Source of the DNA: Bacteroidota bacterium
Lineage (GTDB): Bacteria > Bacteroidota > Ignavibacteria > UBA10030
Assembly (NCBI GenBank): GCA_026416125.1
Contig: JAOAFT010000006.1
Coordinates: 13,015-77,014 of the forward strand
DNA: 64,000 nt
Direction of reading: 5' to 3'
Shown: positions 3,651 through 61,651 of the stretch, piece after piece
Layout: each line of letters opens with the position of its first letter
Numbering within the stretch: position 1 is the stretch's first letter
Made by a program: the position numbers and the translations under genes
Notes under the pieces: generated by a model
What the model saw: the letters and a program-made list of their open reading frames with translations, nothing else
What the model was told of the DNA's origin: nothing
Database searches by the model: none

Positions 3651-4805
3651 TCATTGGTTCTCAATAGTTACCGAAACACCGGATGTTCCCTTTTGTTCTA
3701 AACTATTGAGAAGTTCTTCTAATTCATCGGCAGTAATGATTTTCCCATCAACCATTATTGAACCATACGTTTGCCATGCTACCCAGTTCGTAGGTTCAGA
3801 GCGAAGAGCTGTGTACCGAGCTGCAGCGTCGGATGGTTGACTACTAAAAAATTTTTCGAGTATTTTGCCCACACGATCTGTCGTAATACGGAACACAACC
3901 GGTTTACTGGATCGTTCTACTTTCCCTCTATTGGTATTCACAAGCGCACTTATTTGAACAACATATGCTTTCTCGTACTCAAGTTTTCGCTCCGCATCGG
4001 CAGGGTATGTGTACGTTGTTACACCTGAAAGCTCACGAACAAGAACAGGACGAGCTGCGGAAACAGCATCTTGGGGTGATCGATGTCCTCGACCAACTTC
4101 AAATATTCTTAGAATAACATCTTGGGCAGTTGTCGTCCAGGTAAATGTCGGTGTCAGAGTAGTTAGAATAGCTCCATTCGATGGTTCTACAATTTCGACG
4201 TAGACTTCTTCAACATTACTTCGACTTATAACAATTGTTTCTGATGTCGAACCCACTTTTTGCCGAAGTGCATTATAAGCTGTAAGAACAATTCTATATG
4301 TTCCGGGTGGTACAGTAACAGTTGCTTGCGCTAAGTCTTCAATCCGTTTTCGAAGCCTTGTATTTTCAAAGTAGTTTTCGTTTACAATATAAATTTCACC
4401 TGACCTGGTAGTAAAATCGAAGGCAGTTAATGTTCGTCGTCCATTGATTTGAAATAGATTTGTCTTACCACGTACAATGAGATCACTTTGTGCATCGCCC
4501 TGGAGTTGCACAAATACTTCCGCAACAAGGTAAATTCTTCCACGTCCCTCAGGGGGGTCTATCACTTCGATATCAACCGAAACACCAGATATTGTTGGAC
4601 TCAATTTCTGCTCGCGAACATTGATGAAGTCTGCAAGATATACCATCTCATATTCTGGACGAGTTACTGTTATTCGTACTTCTTTAATTGGATTTACTAC
4701 TGATTGAGCAACCAGAAGAAAACAAACACTACTCTGGACTAAAAATCCTATAACTACAAATAGGATTGGCCTCCGCATTTTTGATTTCTTTATATTATTA
4801 TTCAT
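3651..4805 (-). CDS. Hypothetical secreted/membrane-anchored protein. It overlaps the downstream gene by 14 nt, which suggests translational coupling.
   Basis: N-terminal hydrophobic segment ILFVVIGFLVQSSVCFLLVAQS. No recognisable catalytic motif. Confidence 0.5.
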   Translation of the reverse strand: MNNNIKKSKMRRPILFVVIGFLVQSSVCFLLVAQSVVNPIKEVRITVTRPEYEMVYLADFINVREQKLSPTISGVSVDIEVIDPPEGRGRIYLVAEVFVQLQGDAQSDLIVRGKTNLFQINGRRTLTAFDFTTRSGEIYIVNENYFENTRLRKRIEDLAQATVTVPPGTYRIVLTAYNALRQKVGSTSETIVISRSNVEEVYVEIVEPSNGAILTTLTPTFTWTTTAQDVILRIFEVGRGHRSPQDAVSAARPVLVRELSGVTTYTYPADAERKLEYEKAYVVQISALVNTNRGKVERSSKPVVFRITTDRVGKILEKFFSSQPSDAAARYTALRSEPTNWVAWQTYGSIMVDGKIITADELEELLNSLEQKGTSGVSVTIENQ

Positions 4806-35049: not shown

Positions 35050-36162
35050 CTATAATAGTGAAATAAATTCATAGAAAAGGTAATCACTATCATGTGGTCC
35101 AGGGGATGCCTCGGGGTGGTATTGTACAGAAAAGGCAGGGTATTTTTTATGTCGGAGTCCTTCGTTTGTATGATCATTTAAGTTTATGTGTGTGATTTCA
35201 ACATTGTGAGGGTCGAGTGTATCTGGATCAACTGCAAAACCGTGGTTTTGAGAGGTTATTTCAATGGTATTTGTAAGCAGGTTTTTCACAGGGTGATTTG
35301 CGCCACGATGTCCAAACTTGAGTTTATATGTTCTTCCTCCAAGAGCAAGAGCGAGGAGTTGGTGGCCAAGACAAATTCCAAAGATAGGTTTTTTCCCTAA
35401 AAGTTTTCTAATGTTTTTTACTCCGTAACGTACTGCAGCAGGATCTCCAGGTCCATTCGAAAGGAATACGCCATTAAATTTTTTTGTAAGAATTTCCTCA
35501 GCAGGGTATTGAGCAGGAAAGACCGTTAATTCGCACCCATAAGCTGCGAGTCGACGGAGTATGTTAAACTTAACACCATAGTCATATACAGCTATTTTCC
35601 ACTGTTGATTTCCTGGGTTAGTCAATGGTGCAAGTGCATATGGTGTTGTATCGATCGCATTCCACAAATAAGGTTCTTTAGTTGTTACAACACGTGCTAA
35701 ATCTAGACCTATCATTTGTCTTGATTGCTTCACTTTTTGTAAAAGTGATTCATCATCATCATCAAGAGTGGAAAGTATACCTCTCATTGCTCCTACTGTT
35801 CGAATCATTTTTGTAAGCATCCGAGTGTCTATACCTTGAATTGCGATGATGTTATTTTCTTTTAGGTACGCACCAAGAGATTGTGTAGAGCGGAAGTTAC
35901 TAGGATATTCGCTATACTCTTTTACTACGAACCCAGCTACTTGTGGTTTACTCGATTCTATATCGTCCTGATTAACCCCGTAATTCCCTATCAGGGGATA
36001 TGTCATTGTGACAATTTGCCCTGCATATGACGGATCAGTAAGAATTTCTTGATAACCTGTCATGCTTGTATTAAAGACCACTTCACCTGTAATTTCCCCC
36101 GTGGCACCAAACGATTCGCCAATGAAAACAGTTCCGTTTTCCAATACTAGTTTCGCTTTCAT
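35050..36162 (-). CDS. carA: Carbamoyl-phosphate synthase small (glutaminase) subunit. The ORF-track start is 36198; the likely start is MKAKLVLENG.
   Basis: Class I glutamine amidotransferase triad region (GICLGHQLL ... HPE). CarA N-terminal domain. Confidence 0.9.
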   Translation of the reverse strand: MKAKLVLENGTVFIGESFGATGEITGEVVFNTSMTGYQEILTDPSYAGQIVTMTYPLIGNYGVNQDDIESSKPQVAGFVVKEYSEYPSNFRSTQSLGAYLKENNIIAIQGIDTRMLTKMIRTVGAMRGILSTLDDDDESLLQKVKQSRQMIGLDLARVVTTKEPYLWNAIDTTPYALAPLTNPGNQQWKIAVYDYGVKFNILRRLAAYGCELTVFPAQYPAEEILTKKFNGVFLSNGPGDPAAVRYGVKNIRKLLGKKPIFGICLGHQLLALALGGRTYKLKFGHRGANHPVKNLLTNTIEITSQNHGFAVDPDTLDPHNVEITHINLNDHTNEGLRHKKYPAFSVQYHPEASPGPHDSDYLFYEFISLL

Positions 36163-36407
36163 ACTTCTTATAATACGAAGAAATTCGTGGCTTTCCAAAA
36201 AAAATCTTGGATATCTATGTAGGGGAACTCTTTTGTTAATTTTTTACGTCTACAAATGCAAGTAATTTTATAAGCGTCGAACTTGTAATGGCAAGCATCA
36301 TAGTAATAGAAGCTCATAAAGAGTTGCAAGAAAACTGCGAAGGTATCAGTGGTGAGTATTTATTCTTTTGTTTTCTACATGGTTTAAAGTTTGAAAAAAC
36401 CCTTTTC

Positions 36408-39064: not shown

Positions 39065-39676
39065 TTGCTTGTACAACGAATGAATAAACAACGTACGTAC
39101 ATCCTCTTCAACAAGCCATACGGTGTACTGTCACAATTCACACCAGAAGCGGGGTATCGCTCGCTCCGCGATTTCGGTCCGTTTCCCCTCGATGTTTATC
39201 CAGTCGGCAGACTCGATGCCGACAGTGAAGGTTTGCTATTCCTCACGAATGATAATCGGGTCAAACATCGCCTCATTAGTCCACAATTCAATCATCCACG
39301 TACTTATTGGGCACAGGTAGAAGGAGTCCCATCCGAAGAGTCTCTCAACAAGTTGAGAACTGGTATACATATAGAAGGAAAACCGACAAAACCAGCTGAT
39401 GTATGTATCCTTACTCCACAACCAGATGTGCCCCCGCGGGCAAAGCCAATCCGGTATAGGAAAACAATTCCAACAACGTGGATTGAATTAACTCTCTATG
39501 AAGGGCGAAATCGGCAAGTGCGAAAGATGACTGCTGCAGTTGGACATCCAACACTCCGACTTATCCGTGTGGCGATTGCTTGTCTCCACCTCGATGGACT
39601 TGAACCTGGTTCTCACAGATATTTAACTGCTGACGAACTCCACCATCTCTCTGCGGTACTTTCTCTCTCACTATAG
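39065..39676 (+). CDS. rluE: RsuA/RluE-type rRNA pseudouridine synthase (no S4 domain).
   Basis: Catalytic motif PVGRLDADSEGLLFLTND. About 200 aa. Confidence 0.75.
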   Translation: MLVQRMNKQRTYILFNKPYGVLSQFTPEAGYRSLRDFGPFPLDVYPVGRLDADSEGLLFLTNDNRVKHRLISPQFNHPRTYWAQVEGVPSEESLNKLRTGIHIEGKPTKPADVCILTPQPDVPPRAKPIRYRKTIPTTWIELTLYEGRNRQVRKMTAAVGHPTLRLIRVAIACLHLDGLEPGSHRYLTADELHHLSAVLSLSL

Positions 39677-40442
39677 AACAACCCTGTTTCGGTACAGTAT
39701 CAGTTGGTAATCGAAATCGATTATTGTCCAATACATTGGGCATCCATTAGTACACCATTGAACACGAGCAACTAATTTGGGGTTCGAGTTTTCTTATATC
39801 GGATTAATATTTTGGAGATGATTTAGTGGTAAGAGATGGCAAATGGGAAGCACTATTGGAAAACAACAAGAAGAATCAGTTTAAAAAGATCTAAAAAATG
39901 AGTGATCAAAATTATTCCATTTGATTTTTACTTAGCAAACTTAATAAATACAGGAGGTTAGGGCTGTAATAGGTTAAATATCACTTATACATAAACATTG
40001 GTGAAGGAATAGATGCAAGAAAGTTTGCTTTACAATCAATAGGAAGAGGTGTGAGAAATGAAGTTTTACCACAGAAAAGAAAAAAGATTTTAAATTTTAC
40101 ATAATAATAATGGAGTAGAAAAACCTACTTAGTAAATGTATCAATCAAAAAAGTAAGTTTTTTAGAAACTTTACTTGTTTACAGCACAAAGTCGAAAATT
40201 AAAAAGGTAAACGGAGACCCTCAAAGTAGAAAAACAAGAAGAATTACTCGCCATCTTTCATACCAACAGAGGTAAATTATACGTAAGGGTACTTAATACT
40301 GAGTACTTTTTCTTTACATTATTTTTTCACTTTTTTATGGTTATATTTTGCTAAATTCTTCGCTCAATAAAAGTAGGATGGAAACACAATTCCTTGATTT
40401 CCATAAAGGTATTCTCTGTAATTCAAGGATTCCGTTCTTTGT

Positions 40443-41114
40443 ATGGATAAGGTTACAAAAAATAACAACAATTCACACCGAGTACCGGAAGAGTTTAGAG
40501 AACTTCTAAAATTTACAGGTGCAGGCTACGGTGTAGGACTCCTCCTTGGGTTGGTTCTCGATAGTTTACAACAACACACTAGTGCACTTGGACATTGGCT
40601 TGTACGGACATTCGCTGGAGAAGGTGAGAGCGTATTTGAAGGGATCTATGCCCTTCGTCAACGACTTCTCCATGCTTCCCGGTCGTTAGCAGAGGCATAC
40701 GGTTGGGGGAAACTTTTAGGAATGACTGTGCCGTGGATAATTGATGCACTCTCTCATCTCTTTGGAGTTGATGTATATGGCATTGAGGGATTCTATATTC
40801 CCTACTTTTATGCATTGAGCGACCAAATCGGTGCTAATGTTACTGGATTCGTGTTTCTTAAAAAAAGAGAAGGCACGTTCAAAAGAACGCTCATTGAATA
40901 TTTCCACAACCCTGTTATGCTCAGCAGTCTTGCGATTATTATACTTGTTCCTTTTGGACTTTTTGTCGGACGTGCTGTTGGTTTTAGTCCAGCAACACAA
41001 CTACTCACAGCCATTGAAACAATTGTAGCAAATGTATGTTGGCTTCCACCGCTTATTGGTATGCTCCACGAGCGTTTAGAAAATTCGAAGCAGTCTGCGA
41101 ATGAATCAAATTAG
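40443..41114 (+). CDS. Hypothetical membrane-associated protein flanked by AT-rich non-coding DNA.
   Basis: ORF with hydrophobic segments. No recognisable motif. Confidence 0.4.
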
Positions 41115-42829: not shown

Positions 42830-45800
42830 ATGTCACACGCAATTGCGGTATTGATAGCAGTACTGTTCATCGCTCTACCAATCTATGCACAGGGAGTGAT
42901 GTACCCTTATCGGCAGAACTTTGATTCCGTCAGCACACCATTTTTCCCAAGTGGATGGGATGCTGTAGGATTCACACTCTCAACATCTTCACCGCGTTCT
43001 TCTCCGAACTGTGTGTACACAGCTGGTAACACAGCTAAGAAGACACTTACCACACCACCCTTTGACTTTGTGAAAAGAAATCCAGAAAAACTTACATTCT
43101 GGGAACGACGCTCAGCAACAGCTCTCACTTATCGACTTGAAGTCCGAGCTGCTATTGAGGATACAAATTTTTCCATACTTCTCGCCCGTTTTGACACTAG
43201 TCCATCAACTACAAGTTACATACTCAGGAGTGTTGATCTTTCTTCCAGTGTACTTGCTAACCGTTCAAACGTTCGATTTCGGTGGGTACTCCTCCAGGAT
43301 AACACCAATTCTACTGGTACACTCCGTATTGATGATGTAAGTATCACCGTACTGCCGACATACGATGTTGGAGTATCAGCGTTTACAATTTCAACTATCA
43401 ATCCAACCCGACGTGACTCATTAATATTCACAGCGACTATTTCAAATTACGCAACAAACTGTGGACGCGTACCTGTTTACTTTGGGCGAGATCTTAACGA
43501 AAACGGTAAAGCCGACCCCAACGAATTTATTACAACTGTTTCTATCGACACTCTTTTTGGAGGCGATTCATCAATTCTACAGTTTATCCATCCTCCATTA
43601 AAGCCAGCAGCCTATTCATTTTTCACTCTCACAGCAGCACTATCCGATGAGAATCGTTCAAATGACACTAGCATGTTATGGTGTACTATTGGATTTTGCA
43701 GAGGTGATGTTATCATTAATGAATTCCTCTATGCGCCAACTGGTGATGAGGACGAATGGATAGAACTCTATAACACGACATCCGATTCTGTGAATCTTCG
43801 GTTGTGGAAAGTTGCTGATAATAGTACTGCAGGGAAAACAACAATTACTACAAGCGATGTCATTTTCCCTCCTCGTTCGTACGCAGTACTATACAAGGAT
43901 CATATGTTCACCACACTTCACCCCGGTGTATTTGGGGTTCGAGTGCCTTTTGCTGCGCTCAACAACACCACGTCTGACGCAATTGTGCTCTATGACTCAC
44001 GGAACGTTGTTATCGATAGTCTTCGGTACGAACCATCATGGGGAGGAAAGAATGGGAAATCACTTGAGCGTATTGAGCCTGAACAACCGAGTACATCGAG
44101 AAGTAATTGGCAAACAAGTGATTCTACCATTGGCACACCAGGATTTGAAAACAGTGTTGCACGGAAAATGATTGATCTTGCAATTACAGCAATCAATGCG
44201 CGTTTTTTATATTCTACACCTCCTCAGTGGTTTATTGAACTTGTCGTTAAAAACATTGGAATTTCGACAGTCAAGGGTTGTACCACTCTTTTTTATCTTG
44301 ATACAAACAATAACGCTATCGCTGAGTGGAACGAGGAATGTGTACATTTATTCAACCAAGAACAAATAGTCAAAGGTGATTCTCTCTGCATACGTACAAC
44401 ACTGAATACCTCAGTATGGGGTGAACAAACACTTTTAGTACACCTAGTCGTACCAAACGACGAACGACTAAAAAACAATTTTACTTCACTACTCCTCAAC
44501 AGTGGCTATCCTCCCTCCTCAGTTGTCATCAACGAACTCCAATATGCCCCACCTGAAGGTCAGTGTGAATGGCTAGAACTCTTCAATCGTTCTCACATTC
44601 CAATTAATCTCAAAGGATGGACCTTTGCAGACCGTCCATCACCATCGGGGAATAGAACCATCGTAAAGATTACCGATTCAAATATTGTACTTCTTCCTCA
44701 ATCCTATTGCGTTATTGCAGCTGATTCAATTATCAAGGAAGCATTCCCATCTCTTTCTTCTAAAGTGCTCCTACTAATTCTACAGCGTTCTTCAGGTTTT
44801 AGTTTTAACAACGATAGCGATGCAGTTGTCTTGTACGATGGCATTGGTAATTGCATCGATAGTATCGTCTATATATCGACATGGTCACGAGTAAAAAACA
44901 GATCTCTCGAACGGTACGATACTGAAATACCTGCTCTCGATGTCTTGCAATGGTCGAGTACAGAATCCACAAGCGGCGGTACACCTGGTTTACCAAATAC
45001 GACTGCACGAAAAACATACGATATTGCTCTTGCACGAGCAACGCCTGAGTATTCACATTCGATGAAACACTGGACCATCGTGACAACAGTAAAAAATCTT
45101 GGGCGAATTACTGTACCATCGTACACTCTCACATTTTCACTCGATGGTAACAGGAACTATCTTCCAGAGCCTCATGAAGAACTTTTAGCGCTCAACATTT
45201 CTGAAATACTTGAACCTCTCGATTCTATGACCATTACAACATTGCTCCCCCAACTTCCTGCGGGCGATCAAAGGATACTTGTTGTTCTTACAGAAGACCA
45301 TGACGAACAACAGCGTAACAATACCATCTCTCTTTCTATTACATGTGGATATCCACCTCAATCAATTGTTATCACAGAACTATGTTTTGATCCACCCCCG
45401 GATCAATGTGAGTGGTTCGAACTCTTGAATCGCACAAGCGAGCCGATTAATCTTTTTAAGTGGTCGTTCGCAGATCGACCAACTGCCTCTGGATATCGGA
45501 ATAAATTTACAATTGGAGATTCAATATTTATTCTTCCACCATACAGTTATTGTGTTATCGCCGCAGACTCTACCATCTTTGAGGTTTTCCCTTCTCTTCA
45601 ACACTCTCAAGTACTCATTTTCAACAGAACAACAGGGTTTGGCTTAAATAACGATACTGATGCACTTACTCTTTACGATAACGCAGGAAATTCTATCGAT
45701 AGTGTTACATACTCAGCAAACTGGTTTCGTGTAAAACAGAAAGCCATCGAACGCATCGATGTAGAACAACCGGCACACGATTCAACAAATTGGAGTACTT

Positions 45801-47032
45801 CAGAATCTCCTCAAAGTGGTACACCAGGAGCACCAAACACTGTTGAACGGAAGAACTTCGACATCTGTATCACATACCCCTCTGCCATTGTACAACAAGA
45901 ACATACTATCTTGAGTCTAACAGTGCGAAACGTTGGTCGAGCACCATCATATAGTTTTACAGTTGTCTGTTTTCGCGATAGTAACACCAATACAAGACCA
46001 GATCCATCTGAAGTACTCCTCACAAGAAACTACACTGAGCTCCTTGCACCAAATGATTCGTTGCGTATTGAACTTTTGCTTTCGTACACATTCTATGGTA
46101 CATCAACACTTATGATCATTGTTTTTGATTCGCTTGACCAACGACCAAACAACAATACTGCCACAGTTAGCCTTACTCGATCGTACCCACACCGTTCACT
46201 CGTTATCAACGAAATTCTTTTCAATCCGTTGAATGGACAGAATGAGTGGTTTGAAGTATATAATCGATCACAACTCCCCATTGATCTCAAACGGTGGTAT
46301 ATTGCAGATGCACCTACACCGAGTGGAATACGATCGGTAGTACGAATTTCAGATTCGTCGTATATCCTTTACCCTGGCGAGTACTGTTGTATTGCATCAG
46401 ATTCGAGTATCTTTTCTTTTACCTTTAAAGCGTCCTCACGTGTTCATATTATTACACGCCCGAGTGGTTTTAACTTAGGAAATGATGGTGATGCTTTAGT
46501 ATTGTTCGATCACACAGGAACCCAAATTGATAGCGTATTCTTCTCAGCACAGTGGCACAATCCACGTGTAGCAGATACAAAAGGACGCTCACTTGAGCGA
46601 TTGAATCCAGAATTCGATTCCAACGACCCTCGTTCATGGGGCACGTGCACTCTTCCGGTGGGTGGTACCCCTGCTCACCAAAACAGCATTGCACTCCCAC
46701 TTCCACAGATTGGGGACGTGGTTACTATCGCCCCCAACCCTTTCTCGCCTGATGGAGATGGATATGAAGACCACTGTGCCATTCGCTACTCTCTCCCGTT
46801 CACAGCAACTTTCGTTACCATACGCATTTTCGATGTACGAGGGAGACTTGTGAAAACGCTAGCTGACCGCGAATATCGATCAGGAAATGATGTTATTATT
46901 TGGAATGGGTATGATGATTACAATCGAAGGGTTCGTGTTGGAATTTATATTGTCTTTTTTGAAGCTCGCGAACCACAAACACAGACTATTTTTCGGAATA
47001 AATATATTCTTATCACTGGAACTAAACTTTAA
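42830..47032 (+). CDS. 1400-aa secreted modular protein: four alternating CARDB-like and Lamin-tail-domain (LTD) modules plus a C-terminal T9SS type-B sorting domain.
   Basis: Signal peptide. LTD signatures occur four times (VIINEFLYAP..DEWIELYN; VVINELQYAP..CEWLELFN; IVITELCFDP..CEWFELLN; LVINEILFNP..NEWFEVYN). C-terminus has NPFSPDGDGYED...IRIFDVRGRLV (CHU_C/type-B-like). Confidence 0.8.
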   Translation: MSHAIAVLIAVLFIALPIYAQGVMYPYRQNFDSVSTPFFPSGWDAVGFTLSTSSPRSSPNCVYTAGNTAKKTLTTPPFDFVKRNPEKLTFWERRSATALTYRLEVRAAIEDTNFSILLARFDTSPSTTSYILRSVDLSSSVLANRSNVRFRWVLLQDNTNSTGTLRIDDVSITVLPTYDVGVSAFTISTINPTRRDSLIFTATISNYATNCGRVPVYFGRDLNENGKADPNEFITTVSIDTLFGGDSSILQFIHPPLKPAAYSFFTLTAALSDENRSNDTSMLWCTIGFCRGDVIINEFLYAPTGDEDEWIELYNTTSDSVNLRLWKVADNSTAGKTTITTSDVIFPPRSYAVLYKDHMFTTLHPGVFGVRVPFAALNNTTSDAIVLYDSRNVVIDSLRYEPSWGGKNGKSLERIEPEQPSTSRSNWQTSDSTIGTPGFENSVARKMIDLAITAINARFLYSTPPQWFIELVVKNIGISTVKGCTTLFYLDTNNNAIAEWNEECVHLFNQEQIVKGDSLCIRTTLNTSVWGEQTLLVHLVVPNDERLKNNFTSLLLNSGYPPSSVVINELQYAPPEGQCEWLELFNRSHIPINLKGWTFADRPSPSGNRTIVKITDSNIVLLPQSYCVIAADSIIKEAFPSLSSKVLLLILQRSSGFSFNNDSDAVVLYDGIGNCIDSIVYISTWSRVKNRSLERYDTEIPALDVLQWSSTESTSGGTPGLPNTTARKTYDIALARATPEYSHSMKHWTIVTTVKNLGRITVPSYTLTFSLDGNRNYLPEPHEELLALNISEILEPLDSMTITTLLPQLPAGDQRILVVLTEDHDEQQRNNTISLSITCGYPPQSIVITELCFDPPPDQCEWFELLNRTSEPINLFKWSFADRPTASGYRNKFTIGDSIFILPPYSYCVIAADSTIFEVFPSLQHSQVLIFNRTTGFGLNNDTDALTLYDNAGNSIDSVTYSANWFRVKQKAIERIDVEQPAHDSTNWSTSESPQSGTPGAPNTVERKNFDICITYPSAIVQQEHTILSLTVRNVGRAPSYSFTVVCFRDSNTNTRPDPSEVLLTRNYTELLAPNDSLRIELLLSYTFYGTSTLMIIVFDSLDQRPNNNTATVSLTRSYPHRSLVINEILFNPLNGQNEWFEVYNRSQLPIDLKRWYIADAPTPSGIRSVVRISDSSYILYPGEYCCIASDSSIFSFTFKASSRVHIITRPSGFNLGNDGDALVLFDHTGTQIDSVFFSAQWHNPRVADTKGRSLERLNPEFDSNDPRSWGTCTLPVGGTPAHQNSIALPLPQIGDVVTIAPNPFSPDGDGYEDHCAIRYSLPFTATFVTIRIFDVRGRLVKTLADREYRSGNDVIIWNGYDDYNRRVRVGIYIVFFEAREPQTQTIFRNKYILITGTKL

Positions 47033-47182
47033 CTGGTTAGTTATGACTACTCTTAATTCTTTATCACTTATCCTTATCAAAAAACACTAAAACTTTATAA
47101 CCTCGAAATTGCAAGTAATAAAAACTTTTTTAATACATTTGTTATTAACTCATTTAACTTTAAATCTAAAGTATACCACTTT

Positions 47183-48106
47183 ATGATGACACATTTCTAT
47201 ATTATAGTCCATTTCTTTACTTTCGGTGCTGGAGTAATGCTTGTTTCTTTCTCTCTCATTGCTTTTAAAAAAACACAAAAGATATTTTACCTAAATCTTT
47301 TCTACTTTACGATAGTAATAATTATTTTTTCATTCTTAGGCTTTTTATACACGTACAAAACAGGGCTACAGCTTCAGTTCCCTACATTGTATTTTCGCGT
47401 CTATGATATTCTATGGTCTCTTTTCTGGTTTCTCTATTACCGTATTTCCCCTCGTTTTTTCTACCATATACTCGAAAAAACTATACCACGAATTGTTGAG
47501 ATCTGCTTTAATGCCATAAGTTTTGTTGCAATTCCATACTTACTGGTTTACACTTTTAACATTCTAACACTAAAAAACGCTATCGATATCATTGTAGAAA
47601 TCTTACTGTATTTGAGTGCTCTCTTCCACTGTGTTTTAGTCTTTCACTATAAAAACAACGTTAAAAAACCAGAAATGAGGCATTATGTCCAATATGTCTC
47701 TATTTACTTTTTTATATTTATTCCCCTCGCGTGCCTTAATGTTTTCTTAAACTTTACCCTGCTTCCTATTATTGAAAACAACTTAAAAAATTATTTAATC
47801 TCGTTTTCAGTTCTTGCTTGGTTTATATTAAACATTATTTTTCTGTTCCGACAATTTTCTTTAGAAAGTACTCATATAGCTTTTGAAATTCCAAAAGAAG
47901 TACAAGCCAAATATGGTTTAACAGACCGCGAAATTCAAATAATCAAACTACTCGTTGACAGGTATAGTTATAAAGAAATAGCTTACCAACTCTTCATCTC
48001 AGTACCCACCGTTAAGTATCATGCCTCTAATATCTATTTTAAGCTCAATATTAAAACAAGAGCAGAACTTATCGAACTCCTAAAAAAATACAGTTACACT
48101 TCGTAA
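47183..48106 (+). CDS. Polytopic membrane protein with a C-terminal LuxR/GerE-type HTH (membrane-bound one-component regulator).
   Basis: About 6-7 predicted TM helices over ~230 aa, followed by LTDREIQIIKLLVDRYSYKEIAYQLFISVPTVKYHASNIYFKL. Very AT-rich. Confidence 0.75.
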   Translation: MMTHFYIIVHFFTFGAGVMLVSFSLIAFKKTQKIFYLNLFYFTIVIIIFSFLGFLYTYKTGLQLQFPTLYFRVYDILWSLFWFLYYRISPRFFYHILEKTIPRIVEICFNAISFVAIPYLLVYTFNILTLKNAIDIIVEILLYLSALFHCVLVFHYKNNVKKPEMRHYVQYVSIYFFIFIPLACLNVFLNFTLLPIIENNLKNYLISFSVLAWFILNIIFLFRQFSLESTHIAFEIPKEVQAKYGLTDREIQIIKLLVDRYSYKEIAYQLFISVPTVKYHASNIYFKLNIKTRAELIELLKKYSYTS

Positions 48107-48254
48107 TAGTCTTGAGATGTAAATTTTTATAAAAACTATACAAAAAGTATAGGTCATTTTACTAGACATCTTACTACATTGCAGACAACCATTGTCAGAG
48201 GAGATTAACACTACACAAATAATAAAATCCTTAAAAACGGGAAAGGGCAAAATT

Positions 48255-49835
48255 ATGAAAAGACAAATAATGATAAAAATCATAACCATGTTAATGGTTA
48301 TGATCACGAACAGATGCTTCGCACAAATACCCCAATTGTTGAATTATCAAGGTGTTCTTTGTGACAGCTCAGGATTACCTATAAGCGATGGGACATATAC
48401 GCTAATATTTAAACTTTATGATCATGCAACTAAAAGTGGTGAGCTTTGGTCTGAACAACAAATAGTTACCGTTCGCAAAGGTGTTTTTTCAGTTAATCTT
48501 GGAACTCAATCTCAATTAAATTTGCCTTTTAATAAGCAATATTGGCTTGGTATTACAATAGGTAATGGTAACGAATTAACGCCTCGAATACAATTAACAT
48601 CTTCAGCTTATAGTATGAATTCGATTTCGGTAGCAGATAGTTCAATAACTAGTATTAAGATCAAAGAAGGTGCTATAACATCATCGAAAATAGCAACAAA
48701 TGCAATTACGCAAACAAAACTTGCAGATAGTACCGTTACCACAGAAAAATTAGCAAATTTAAGCGTAACATCATCCAAACTGGCAAACAATTCTGTAACA
48801 ACCGAAAAAATTGCAGATGGAGCCATTACCCAATCTAAGCTTGCTCAAGGTATCTCTATCCCTGTAAGCGGCAATGCTGGTGGCGATCTCACTGGCACAT
48901 ATCCAAATCCAATTATTGGAAACGCTAAAGTAACCAAAGAAAAATTGGCTGATTCGGCCGTAACTACTGCAAAACTCGCCGTCAATTCTGTAACAACCGA
49001 AAAAATTGCAGATGGAGCCATTACCCAATCTAAGCTTGCTCAAGGTATCTCTATCCCTGTAAGCGGCAATGCTGGTGGCGATCTCACTGGCACATATCCT
49101 GACCCTACAATCAAAGACAAAGCAATAGCAAGCAAACACATAAATTGGCCAATCCAATTATCTGATGAGCTCGTATTAGGAAACCCTGGTACTTACTCAC
49201 TCCAAGCAAGTCGATACTCTGGTACTTTACAACTTTGCCCCAATAACACTTCGTATGCTCCTCTTTTTGTGGTCAAAGGCAATTATAGTTACTCTGCTTG
49301 GCTTGGTGGAAATGTACTAATCTCAAACGGAAACTTAACTGTAAATGGGAATCTACTTGTATTTGGTTCAAAGAGTTTTATCATCGACCACCCACTCGAT
49401 CCCGCGAATAAATACCTTGTTCACTTTTGCATTGAATCCAACAAGCCATTGAACGTTTACACTGGTACAGTCGTTACAGATAGAGATGGAAATGCCACTA
49501 TTGACCTACCAGCTTATTTTGAAGCTATAAATCGTGACTTCCATTACCAACTAACTGTCCTTGGTCAATTTGCACAAGCTATTGTAAGTGAAGAGATTCA
49601 CAATAACCGTTTTTCAATAAAAACCGACAAGCCAAATGTTAAAGTGAGTTGGCAAGTAACAAGTGTTCGTAACGATCTTTCCATGCAGGGATCACTTCCT
49701 CAAACTGAAGTTTATAAAAGTGTAAAAGAACGTGGGAAGTACTTCAATCCAAAACTCTATGGTGCACCTCCATCATCAGGTTTATACAACAACGAGTTGC
49801 CACAACATTTAAACGATAGTCATGAATCGAACTAA
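48255..49835 (+). CDS. Secreted tail-fiber-like protein. Domains in order: conserved N-terminal domain, ~10-residue xITxxKLAxx repeats, C-terminal tail-fiber-type domain. The ORF-track start is 48192; the likely start is MKRQIM with a signal peptide.
   Basis: Signal peptide MKRQIMIKIITMLMVMITNRCFAQ. Decapeptide repeats (AITSSKIATN / AITQTKLADS / VTTEKLANLS ...). Perfect 39-aa internal duplication. C-terminal KSFIIDHPLDP...YQLTVLGQFAQAIV resembles Bacteroidetes tail-fibre-domain proteins (from memory). Confidence 0.55.
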   Translation: MKRQIMIKIITMLMVMITNRCFAQIPQLLNYQGVLCDSSGLPISDGTYTLIFKLYDHATKSGELWSEQQIVTVRKGVFSVNLGTQSQLNLPFNKQYWLGITIGNGNELTPRIQLTSSAYSMNSISVADSSITSIKIKEGAITSSKIATNAITQTKLADSTVTTEKLANLSVTSSKLANNSVTTEKIADGAITQSKLAQGISIPVSGNAGGDLTGTYPNPIIGNAKVTKEKLADSAVTTAKLAVNSVTTEKIADGAITQSKLAQGISIPVSGNAGGDLTGTYPDPTIKDKAIASKHINWPIQLSDELVLGNPGTYSLQASRYSGTLQLCPNNTSYAPLFVVKGNYSYSAWLGGNVLISNGNLTVNGNLLVFGSKSFIIDHPLDPANKYLVHFCIESNKPLNVYTGTVVTDRDGNATIDLPAYFEAINRDFHYQLTVLGQFAQAIVSEEIHNNRFSIKTDKPNVKVSWQVTSVRNDLSMQGSLPQTEVYKSVKERGKYFNPKLYGAPPSSGLYNNELPQHLNDSHESN

Positions 49836-49862
49836 CCCGTACATTGCCAAAGGAGATTACTA

Positions 49863-50396
49863 ATGTGGAAAAATTTATGGAAAAAAGTACAGTACCCTCT
49901 TCTTATCTTCATCGTTTTATCTCCAGAATGGGGATACTCACAATTTATTAAATCATCCACTTTTGGAAGTGGAAGCAATACCTGCTTTTCGAGCACCCAT
50001 AGTGTAAGTGGAATTGTAGGACAAAATATCGTAGGACGTGTTTCAAACACTGTGTATTCTCTCCTCTCTGGCTACTGGTCTCACCGTCATTATTCTACAA
50101 CAGCTCTTGAATACACAACAACTAATTATCCACAACAACTGCAATTATTCAATAATTATCCCAATCCATTTAATGCTTCTACCACTATTTCATTTGTAAT
50201 CCCAAAACCATCCTATGTAACATTGAAAATTTACAATTTATTAGGACAAGAAGTCGCAACTTTAATTGAAAAAGAATTATTACCAGGAATATATTCTCAC
50301 ACTTGGAACACAGTTACAGCATCAAGTGGAATGTATGTTTGCGTGCTAAAAGTAGATCAATGTATTGAAACAAAGAAATTATTACTTGTCAAGTAA
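49863..50396 (+). CDS. Small T9SS type-A C-terminal sorting domain protein (mini-cargo, ~90-aa passenger).
   Basis: Signal peptide. C-terminal NYPNPFNASTTISFVIPKPSYVTLKIYNLLGQEVATLIEKELLPGIYSHTWN...SGMYVCVLKV (Por_Secre_tail-like). Confidence 0.75.
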   Translation: MWKNLWKKVQYPLLIFIVLSPEWGYSQFIKSSTFGSGSNTCFSSTHSVSGIVGQNIVGRVSNTVYSLLSGYWSHRHYSTTALEYTTTNYPQQLQLFNNYPNPFNASTTISFVIPKPSYVTLKIYNLLGQEVATLIEKELLPGIYSHTWNTVTASSGMYVCVLKVDQCIETKKLLLVK

Positions 50397-50855
50397 AAAT
50401 TCTTCATGTATGATGGGTGATTGGTGGAGTTATACAAAACACTTGAACTGTTGAGAAATTAAGTATTTAATTCTCATTATAATACGATGTGTGATTCCAC
50501 CAATCTTATGTATATTACCGTATAGAATTCAACCTGTAGAACATATAATTTTCTGATATTTAGACAATAGTAAGAGTACTCCCCCGTTTTCCCATAATTC
50601 ATGATGATCGCGTTTTCTACTTATACTCCACCTATTTTCCTTCTAATGAAATCTTTTACGATAATGCCATGTGTCATTCTCTACATTTTTATCCATAAAT
50701 ACTCTCTTTATTCTTCCAAATTTTGTAATATTGACTAATACCCCATACAATAAGTACAAACTCTATCAGACTCATAAAGTGCAAACGATGTGATTCAAGT
50801 TCGTTCTCAAAATTATTGAATAATACAGGGAAATTCTCTACATTATGATAGTGAA

Positions 50856-50927
<72 letters not shown>

Positions 50928-50955
50928 TCTACTTTCAAAGGAAATTCTCTATACC

Positions 50956-61319: not shown

Positions 61320-61407
61320 GGAGAGATGCAGGAGTGGTTGAACTGGCACGCCTGGAGAGCGTGTGTACCCCTCAAGGGTACCGTGGGTTCGAATCCCACT
61401 CTCTCCG
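61320..61407 (+). tRNA. tRNA-Ser (anticodon GGA), class II with a long variable arm.
   Basis: Acceptor GGAGAGA/TCTCTCC, anticodon stem CACGC/GCGTG, loop CTGGAGA, T-arm GGGTTCGAATCCC, discriminator G. Confidence 0.8.
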
Positions 61408-61434
61408 CGAAGAGATGTTCTCACCCAAATAAGA

Positions 61435-61521
61435 GGAAGGGTGCGAGAGTGGTTGAATCGGCCGGTCTCGAAAACCGGTATACGCTTCGGCGTATCGAGG
61501 GTTCGAATCCCTCCCCTTCCG
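61435..61521 (+). tRNA. tRNA-Ser (anticodon CGA), class II.
   Basis: Acceptor GGAAGGG/CCCTTCC, anticodon stem CCGGT/ACCGG, loop CTCGAAA, T-arm GGGTTCGAATCCC, discriminator G. Confidence 0.75.
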
Positions 61522-61651
61522 CTCCGCACATTTGTTATACATTTTCACTCAATTCCGTACTTTAGATATATATCACTACTTTCGAAGTCGTAATTCTAAA
61601 TTCAACACTCTCAAATCAAATATTTTGAATCTTGTTTCTGTTGTGAAGCAC

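Follow-up and report, generated by a model that had tools for sequence, protein, structure and literature searches.

The locus examined here raises the question of whether a short AT-rich islet beside a tRNA gene is a mobile island or a set of genes that builds, and perhaps regulates, a structure on the cell surface. The islet occupies positions 47033-50855 of a 64,000-nucleotide stretch of contig JAOAFT010000006.1 (hereafter the window, meaning the whole stretch of DNA analysed), which belongs to a Bacteroidota bacterium of the Ignavibacteria lineage UBA10030. It holds three genes on one strand, encoding a polytopic LuxR-type one-component regulator (the LuxR protein), an exported protein resembling phage tail fibres (the fibre), and a small type IX secretion system (T9SS) cargo protein with a type-A sorting domain (the mini protein, or partner). 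These identities, which an initial annotation had proposed from the sequence, were borne out by the analyses below, and the positions of all features are collected in Table 1. Sequence comparisons indicate that two of the genes, fibre and mini, belong together as a conserved module, newly described here, that recurs in Ignavibacteria, Zixibacteria, Calditrichota, and Bacteroidota. With a probability of roughly 0.55, we read this core as a chromosomal module for a cell-surface fibre in which the mini protein is a dedicated partner that tethers or assembles it.

The fibre protein is present in the protein collection in exactly this form as P0001 ('N3A63_04280, Bacteroidetes bacterium', from a metagenome-assembled genome, MAG), and more than 4264 homologues were detected. 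Its start is most likely the ATG at 48255 and not the TTG at 48192, because the NCBI entry begins there, a purine-rich stretch lies just upstream, and the resulting N-terminus is a standard signal peptide ending CFA/Q. While the initial annotation was right that the protein combines decapeptide repeats with a C-terminal domain of tail-fibre type, its length of 547 aa was thus corrected to 526 aa. Residues 1-23 form the signal peptide, with export by the Sec pathway predicted. The N-domain that follows was modelled by AlphaFold2 (AF2) with a predicted local distance difference test score (pLDDT) >90 and matched a family hidden Markov model (HMM) with E 3e-46. It was also hit by the NCBIfam model NF053851 (Bdello_MAT_N) with E 3e-7 and 30 bits against a curated cut-off of 60 bits; the same model matched 12 of 15 fibre family members, all under its cut-off. 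From these matches, the N-domain appears to be a distant relative of the N-terminal domain of the mosaic adhesive trimer (MAT) fibres of Bdellovibrio.

Beyond the N-domain, the protein is of phage type. The decapeptide units of the shaft occur in seven plus three copies with an exact spacing of 10 residues, each run being closed by QGISIPVSGNAGGDLTGTYP(N/D)P, and all of them lie within a 195-nt (65-aa) internal duplication of the gene (48735-48904 and 48930-49099, 89% identical). Pfam DUF5907 (PF19264) was found with 35 bits versus a gathering score of 27, and the repeat region hit phrog_892 and phrog_28766, both tail fibre families in PHROG (E 1e-23); the shaft was modelled with pLDDT of 40-80 in the AF2 monomer. 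The C-terminal domain (family HMM E 1e-67, pLDDT 85-98) matched phrog_6616, annotated 'tail protein' (E 8e-8), and was present at the ends of proteins on 21 IMG/VR contigs; in L104 and L112 this protein comes after tape measure and minor tail genes. A Foldseek search of BFVD with the fibre returned 35 matches at E ≤1e-3, with phage minor tail and tail fibre proteins on top. In the PDB, Foldseek gave none at E <1e-3, and sequence searches with both the single protein and a profile gave only a weak repeat-region match to 9eg4 orf16 and, separately, a pentapeptide-repeat artefact. The idea of an S74 chaperone domain, also put forward in the initial annotation, did not hold up: Peptidase_S74, a C-terminal domain with an SDxxxK motif, had no Pfam match at E ≤0.01 in the fibre or in 15 family members, sequence searches of the PDB likewise gave none, and the compact, confidently modelled C-domain is predicted to be a tip of the non-S74 type.

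The phage-type repeats and tip, together with the adjacent tRNA gene, are what would be expected if the islet were a decayed prophage or tailocin remnant in which a tail fibre gene and its chaperone had survived. The repeats and C-domain indeed have homologous or structurally similar counterparts in tail fibres and distal tail proteins of phages (PHROG 892, 28766, and 6616; structures 7EEA, 6CU2/6CL6, and 4MTM). Unlike phage fibres, however, the window fibre carries a Sec signal peptide and, where a virion-attachment domain would be, an N-domain of cell type, and it stands outside any phage or tailocin structural cluster, in a family that is mostly chromosomal and often arranged in tandem arrays. 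Neither the N-domain nor the conserved motif of the mini protein (described below) was found on the 21 viral loci bearing the C-domain, and a viral scan with N-domain patterns retrieved no relative. Moreover, a T9SS sorting signal is present on the partner, many genomes have the pair, in several loci with tandem fibre arrays and with no other gene family recurring beside it, and the window genes flanking the islet are cellular. Given this evidence, we regard a phage remnant as very improbable. By its domain content and phage relationship, the fibre is better described as a phage-tail-fibre-like, putative surface protein with a cell-type N-domain; it is presumably trimeric and would be displayed on the surface.

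The MAT fibres of Bdellovibrio bacteriovorus (NF053851; Caulton et al. 2024, PMC10769870) offer a comparison from a bacterial surface. MAT fibres share with the window fibre a signal peptide, a repetitive phage-like shaft, an exchangeable C-terminal tip, and probably the conserved beta-rich N-domain directly after the signal peptide (~130 aa in MAT fibres), the match to NF053851 being below its cut-off. Both families are large, paralogous, and subject to tip swapping. MAT tips are either S74 chaperone/protease domains or non-S74 adhesive domains, and the window fibre is of the latter kind. In contrast to MAT fibres, its host is a T9SS-bearing, Bacteroidota-like MAG and not a predator, its shaft is composed of DUF5907 decapeptides, and its tip is one common to tail proteins of siphovirus type. 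It also has a downstream partner gene, whereas text searches of PMC10769870 brought up neither an operon nor a partner for MAT genes.

That partner, the mini protein, comprises a predicted signal peptide, a conserved motif of ~45 aa, and a sorting domain. The sorting domain is canonical for T9SS type-A cargo, lying above both curated thresholds (Pfam PF18962, Por_Secre_tail, 32.8 bits versus 27; TIGR04183, 43.1 versus 23), and was modelled with pLDDT >85. The protein differs from other cargo of this type in its passenger, which is ~70 aa long and holds the conserved motif but no enzyme or adhesin fold, and in that the motif is joined to dockerin-like tails, or to nothing, where the partner is without a sorting domain. 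We defined the motif with an HMM iterated on open reading frames (ORFs) from 83 fibre loci, of which 80 came from reference genomes and three were contigs carrying the homologue P0003. Its consensus, W.V..GGG..S.NY.L..T[VI]GQ..[VI]G..S.NY.L..GFW, directly follows the signal peptide. The motif had no match in Pfam, nor did the protein in PHROG. A single-sequence HMMER search of 1.84 billion proteins with the N-terminal part of the mini protein gave four matches, because the motif is too short and divergent to be traced from one sequence, and the 1-kb contig bearing P0189 added no information; the best database homologue of the protein was 37% identical. In both the mini and fibre families, glutamine mostly came first after predicted cleavage of the signal peptide (…AQ/Y, …A/QIP). 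This fits the 'Q-rule' of Bacteroidota, by which exported proteins carry an N-terminal pyroglutamate.

Evidence for the module came from the neighbourhoods of fibre homologues. All four of the closest full-length homologues examined (P0003, P0014, P0027, and P0042) had, directly 3' of the fibre gene, a gene for a Por_Secre_tail protein of 172-185 aa that carried the motif (E ~1e-16). At the P0003 locus, the partner (182 aa) matched the mini protein over 152 residues, N-terminal part included (BLASTP E 1e-30); the P0014 partner (172 aa) overlaps the fibre stop, that of P0027 has 185 aa, and the P0042 locus (L114) contains two successive fibre-mini pairs. Across the 83 loci, the motif gene stood -10 to +265 nt 3' of the fibre and on its strand, closed an array of four to six fibres (L009, L011, L019), or, in a few cases, lay just upstream of the fibre. 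No third gene family recurred.

Presence of the motif gene was related to the N-domain. In phyla of the FCB group (the Fibrobacterota-Chlorobiota-Bacteroidota superphylum and allies), 12 of 21 loci whose fibres have the N-domain also had this gene, versus one of 11 without (Fisher p 0.011), the single exception being a fibre cut by a contig end, and over all loci the gene was present in 16 of 50 versus one of 30 (p 0.002), counts that are confounded by phylogeny and contig ends and hence supportive, not decisive. Some N-domain fibres in arrays closed by a motif gene bear other tips. This distribution supports an association of the motif with N-domain fibres and not with the phage-type tip. What follows the motif depended on the lineage. 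Loci from Bacteroidota, Ignavibacteria, and Calditrichota had a T9SS sorting domain there and Zixibacteria a dockerin-like segment; two Xanthomonadales and a metagenomic protein of 86 aa had no more than a short tail. The dockerin-like repeats (D.sD.t.lI..lF) take the place of the sorting domain in Zixibacteria and in one Ignavibacteria MAG, and in locus L069 the motif stands at the N-terminus of a 1308-aa protein.

The tandem arrays consist of four to six fibre paralogues, some of which combine the N-domain with different tips. Those of the FCB group are closed by a single motif gene, apart from L114, which repeats the whole pair with two nearly identical mini genes; an array from Acidobacteriota (L050) had no motif gene. 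In several relatives (L010, L014, L022, L048, L062, and L115) the mini gene begins 3-10 nt before the fibre gene ends, an arrangement that suggests translational coupling, and in the window (49833-49865) the two genes share one frame and are split by a stop codon and 27 nt. Fibre and mini are probably co-transcribed.

The same position of the partner gene also bears on a different role. In phages, tail-fibre assembly proteins are typically encoded by a small gene immediately 3' of the fibre gene, often overlapping it. The mini protein might by analogy be an assembly factor, chaperone, or cap for the fibre and not a surface anchor. Its frequent overlap with the fibre stop, the service of entire arrays by one partner, and the beta strands predicted at low confidence, as would be expected if the motif needed a partner in order to fold, would all fit such a role. 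Several observations run counter to it. No motif gene was found within 6 kb of phage proteins with the same C-domain, and the partner follows the N-domain and not the tip. The mini protein, moreover, differs from phage assembly proteins in being without a PHROG match, in being predicted to be secreted and tethered to the surface, and in accompanying a non-phage N-domain. A sorting domain for covalent attachment, or a dockerin-like tail, would be odd on a transient chaperone, and many fibres of the family fold without a partner. We therefore judge a role confined to assembly to be rather unlikely.

Our best guess, an inferred one, is that the mini protein tethers the fibre, or helps assemble it, at the cell surface. 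Cargo with type-A sorting domains is exported by the T9SS and anchored covalently to anionic lipopolysaccharide (LPS) (PMC9143113). By this route, the T9SS would export the mini protein and its sorting domain would be cleaved off, leaving a peptide of ~70 aa fixed by its C-terminus to anionic LPS of the outer membrane, with the motif presented. At the cell surface, the motif would then hold the fibre by its conserved N-terminal end, or nucleate assembly of that end, and the variable tip would point outward for ligand binding, with the lineage-specific tails of the partners providing attachment. A more specific version, that the mini protein is a surface docking element for the MAT-type N-domain and that in T9SS phyla it may escort a fibre devoid of a sorting domain, providing export and/or LPS anchorage in trans (a 'piggy-back' or adaptor display), is speculative, and we think it improbable as a whole.

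Several points weigh against tethering or assembly by a dedicated partner. The N-domain match to the MAT model is below the curated cut-off, and the co-occurrence counts are confounded as stated above. For the motif, an alignment of ~3 informative rows gave beta strands with a low pLDDT (41-52), and the predicted structure thus says little about it. In Acidobacteriota, most of the fibres that share these N- and C-domains stand without a motif gene beside them; the partner is therefore not universally required. The fibre is itself without a T9SS sorting domain, which leaves its own passage across the outer membrane unexplained, and a small gene directly 3' of a fibre gene is in the classic place of a phage tail-fibre assembly chaperone. 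Finally, with regard to regulation, the link between the LuxR protein and the fibre rests on adjacency on the same strand, a shared codon bias, and the palindrome at 48279-48304.

The LuxR protein ends in a GerE helix-turn-helix (residues 246-298; Pfam PF00196, 55.3 bits versus a cut-off of 23.5) and, by hydropathy, has seven predicted transmembrane (TM) helices at approximately residues 5-27, 36-58, 66-86, 104-126, 133-155, 168-190, and 203-224. The loops alternate in lysine and arginine content in the manner of the positive-inside rule, which predicts an outside N-terminus and an inside C-terminus, so that the GerE domain would lie on the cytoplasmic side. The membrane part had no match to a Pfam family. 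Only 12 homologues were found among 5.8 billion proteins, the best with 27% identity; the best relatives are full-length (315-318 aa), of the same architecture, and 25-27% identical. The protein itself had no exact or near-exact entry in that collection, in which the downstream fibre (P0001) and mini (P0133) proteins are both present, and its gene may be unannotated or otherwise called in the public record. Polytopic regulators of this kind are known from Eggerthella lenta, where DadR, HcdR, and CadR, with 10-12 TM helices, activate adjacent genes (PMC9734109), and a LuxR-type regulator with a single TM helix, BguR, is known from marine Bacteroidota (bioRxiv 10.64898/2026.01.10.698779). The window protein resembles the polytopic regulators in joining an N-terminal membrane domain to a C-terminal GerE domain with no receiver domain and in having candidate targets next to it. 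It differs from the DadR type in its seven TM helices, its length of 307 aa, a TM domain without a Pfam match, and its 12 detectable relatives. We consider its architecture, from these sequence features, a variant of the known polytopic LuxR kind.

Such a protein could, as the initial annotation proposed, be devoted to controlling the fibre-mini operon, acting from within the membrane as a one-component switch of a surface structure. It may turn on the pair upon a membrane or envelope signal. Its gene lies on the strand of the fibre gene, 148 nt before the fibre start, and the three genes have in common a codon usage shifted toward AT. In addition, a perfect inverted repeat of 11 bp at the fibre gene's 5' end is the kind of site that dimeric proteins of the GerE family bind; the repeat may serve the neighbouring LuxR-type protein as an operator or may form a hairpin in the mRNA near the start codon. 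The E. lenta precedents for activation of adjacent genes point in the same direction. Against this, the putative site sits within coding sequence, and the comparative evidence is unfavourable. A polytopic LuxR gene stood beside none of ~85 fibre loci examined and was absent upstream of the three closest ones; tblastn searches of the 83 loci with the LuxR protein and its TM domain gave one distant helix-turn-helix match, 7 kb off. At the two loci examined for full-length LuxR relatives (P0121 and P0123), the neighbour was a beta-lactamase/TPR gene and not a fibre. Dedicated regulation is accordingly a tentative reading, on balance doubtful. In none of the other loci examined did the LuxR gene belong to the conserved module, of which it is a lineage-specific neighbour. 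The coherent theme that the initial annotation had seen in the three genes is thereby reduced to two, fibre and mini, and its alternative of a surface-structure locus turned out to be the better half of its interpretation.

Upstream of the LuxR gene, the AT-rich spacer contains a TAnnTTTG-type element, a weak lead, as the motif was not enriched in the window. Sigma-70-type promoters and intrinsic terminators likewise had no enrichment.

We then turn to whether the islet was acquired. The sharp fall in GC content (guanine plus cytosine) that first drew attention to it is real. The window as a whole has a GC of 0.419 (400-bp windows, mean 0.420, standard deviation 0.036) and the islet 0.340; only three runs of 400-bp windows fell below 0.335 (39701-40500, 46801-48800, and 50001-50900). 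The dinucleotide signature of 47033-50855 had a distance of 0.080, compared with 0.042 ± 0.012 for all windows of the same size, and was the most deviant in the window, equalled by overlapping windows only. The clearest drop had been assigned to the LuxR gene, which is correct for raw GC yet misleading. GC at third codon positions (GC3) is ordinary in this gene (0.325, z -0.75), and the deficit is at first and second positions (0.367 and 0.244, versus gene means of 0.543 and 0.383), and is therefore due to a hydrophobic membrane protein rich in Phe, Ile, Leu, Tyr, Asn, and Lys. When the expected GC was calculated from the amino acids of each protein under the codon usage found in the 47 remaining window genes, the LuxR gene deviated by -0.020 (0.313 versus 0.333, z -2.0), the fibre gene by -0.028 (0.382 versus 0.410, z -2.8), and the mini gene, with the strongest codon-level shift, by -0.052 (0.341 versus 0.393, z -5.2). 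Both flanking genes were as expected (LTD gene, named for its Lamin-Tail domains, z -0.3; DUF2279 gene, z -0.4). The anomaly is thus beyond chance and more than an effect of amino-acid composition alone: its sources are AT-rich spacers, a hydrophobic LuxR protein, and a synonymous shift toward AT in all three genes.

This synonymous shift is compatible with accessory genes that are fast-evolving, weakly expressed, or once transferred. Two unrelated window genes (3651-4805 and 35050-36198) also have codons more AT-rich than expected (z -2.4 and -2.6), so that a moderate codon-level deviation is not peculiar to the islet. The window's other strongly AT-rich stretch (39677-40442, 766 bp, GC down to 0.28) lies between genes ending at 39676 and starting at 40443, with no ORF called and no Rfam match.

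Horizontal acquisition, together or stepwise, into the gap between the LTD and tRNA-Gly genes, with retention of the AT-rich codon usage of a donor, would account for three consecutive shifted genes between normal neighbours and for the deviant dinucleotide signature. It would also fit the comparison with the only relatives found, which came from metagenomes through the DUF2279 flank. They keep the order g54390-pdxJ-DUF1207-DUF2279 at 66-78% amino-acid identity; beyond DUF2279 they match neither the window nor one another, and the tRNA, the LTD gene, and the islet genes are all missing. The best homologues of the islet proteins are, moreover, far more distant than those of the flanks (LuxR 27%, mini 37%, fibre ~44-53%). 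However, these relatives are too distant for the test, and the LTD gene, of normal composition, is missing beyond the break as well; the breakpoint is therefore not assignable to the islet. The LuxR gene never accompanied fibre genes in the loci examined, which leaves no sampled donor with the trio; the two unrelated genes above have a similarly low GC3; and fast evolution under AT-biased mutation would give an identical signature.

Hallmarks of mobility were also sought. As the initial annotation had stated, no integrase was seen: the three islet ORFs include no integrase or recombinase, and no integrase, transposase, or phage gene lies in or next to the islet, whose neighbours are the LTD/T9SS cargo gene, the tRNA, DUF2279, DUF1207, and a pdxJ-like gene. 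Its statement that the 3' end of the tRNA is not repeated also stood, as the 24 nt of that end had no second copy in the window with up to three mismatches allowed; a partial copy (76% over 25 nt) at 43935 lies within the intact LTD ORF. A repeat scan of 42.0-52.5 kb recovered the fibre-internal duplication and short chance matches only, with no notable direct or inverted repeats at the boundaries. Furthermore, the islet is located 5' of the tRNA, whereas classical tRNA-targeted islands use the other side. The suggestion that the tRNA served as an integration site was thus not upheld: tRNA-Gly is without the marks of one, and a mobile islet at the tRNA is not supported. We consider horizontal acquisition of the islet unlikely, and the codon shift and great divergence of the three proteins fit either an old or unsampled transfer or fast-evolving accessory surface genes.

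The 460-bp spacer before the tRNA contains no ORF of ≥50 codons and was without an Rfam match, and neither blastx nor blastn showed it to resemble any of the loci retrieved; Rfam scans of the islet and the whole window identified tRNAs only. These include tandem tRNA-Ser genes (GGA and CGA anticodons) at 61320-61408 and 61435-61522, 26 nt apart. Upstream of the islet, the product of the LTD gene (42830-47032) is 1400 aa long and has four Lamin-Tail domains, one CARDB domain, a T9SS signal of the CHU_C type, and long internal repeats; the gene is of normal composition. A large T9SS cargo gene (935 aa, Por_Secre_tail) also precedes the fibre pair in L001-L003, which may be coincidence.

Table 1. 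Positions of features of the islet and its flanks in the window, and of arrays and fusions at related loci
Feature	Position	Strand	Length or residues	GC	Remarks
LTD gene				0.424	
Spacer, LTD stop to LuxR start	47033-47182			0.233	AT-rich
TAnnTTTG-type element TACATTTG	47134-47141	+			42 nt 5' of LuxR ATG; weak lead
Polytopic LuxR-type one-component regulator	47183-48106	+	307 aa	0.312	GerE match, hydropathy
Spacer after LuxR gene	48107-48191			0.271	
Spacer, LuxR stop to preferred fibre start	48107-48254				Purine-rich GGAAAGGG just 5' of ATG 48255
Fibre gene	48255-49835	+	526 aa	0.378	ATG start preferred; 547 aa if TTG at 48192
Perfect 11-bp inverted repeat ATCATAACCAT-gtta-ATGGTTATGAT	48279-48304				4-nt spacer; in fibre signal-peptide codons (I-I-T-M-L-M-V-M-I)
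Fibre N-domain	48324-48620	+	residues 24-122		Beta-rich; directly after signal peptide
Fibre shaft repeats	48639-49043	+	residues 129-263		Units x-[AS]-[IV]-T-x-x-K-[IL]-A-x
Fibre C-terminal domain	49329-49754	+	residues 359-500		FxIDHPLDPANKYL...LPxYFEALN...KVSWQVT
Mini partner gene	49863-50396	+	177 aa	0.339	Starts 27 nt after fibre stop, same reading frame
Mini signal peptide			~residues 1-26		Hydrophobic N-terminus ending ...GYS/Q
Mini conserved motif	49956-50081	+	residues 32-73 (~45 aa)		Motif HMM E 4e-8
Mini T9SS type-A C-terminal sorting domain	50157-50384	+	residues 99-174		After linker
Spacer upstream of tRNA-Gly	50397-50856		460 bp	0.304	AT-rich
tRNA-Gly (CCC)	50857-50929	+			Islet on its 5' side
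DUF2279 gene				0.415	
Motif-dockerin-like fusion, L062	2141-2644				
Motif-dockerin-like fusion, L048	2789-3310				
Motif-dockerin-like fusion, L019	9394-10005				
Motif-dockerin-like fusion, L009	17741-18311				
Fibre array, L009	4364-18311				
Fibre array, L019	1434-10005				
Fibre array, L011	2319-10868				
Fibre array, L050	3363-13649				
Fibre array, L114	5001-11809				

For the question with which we began, the low GC of the islet is thus partly an amino-acid effect, and the islet is without the hallmarks of a mobile element. The wider meaning of the locus concerns the fibre and its partner. Phage-derived fibres on bacterial surfaces have so far been studied in Bdellovibrio, where the means by which the conserved N-terminal end of a MAT fibre is held on the cell is explicitly described as an open question (PMC10769870). 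A related fibre family with more than 4000 detectable members has a dedicated mini-partner in Ignavibacteria, Zixibacteria, Calditrichota, and Bacteroidota, the sole conserved part of which is a motif of ~45 aa, while its C-terminal end is a surface-attachment signal specific to the lineage. The mini-partner is thereby a concrete, testable candidate for an anchor or assembly factor of MAT-like fibres and, if this holds true, a T9SS cargo would serve as an adaptor for another protein.

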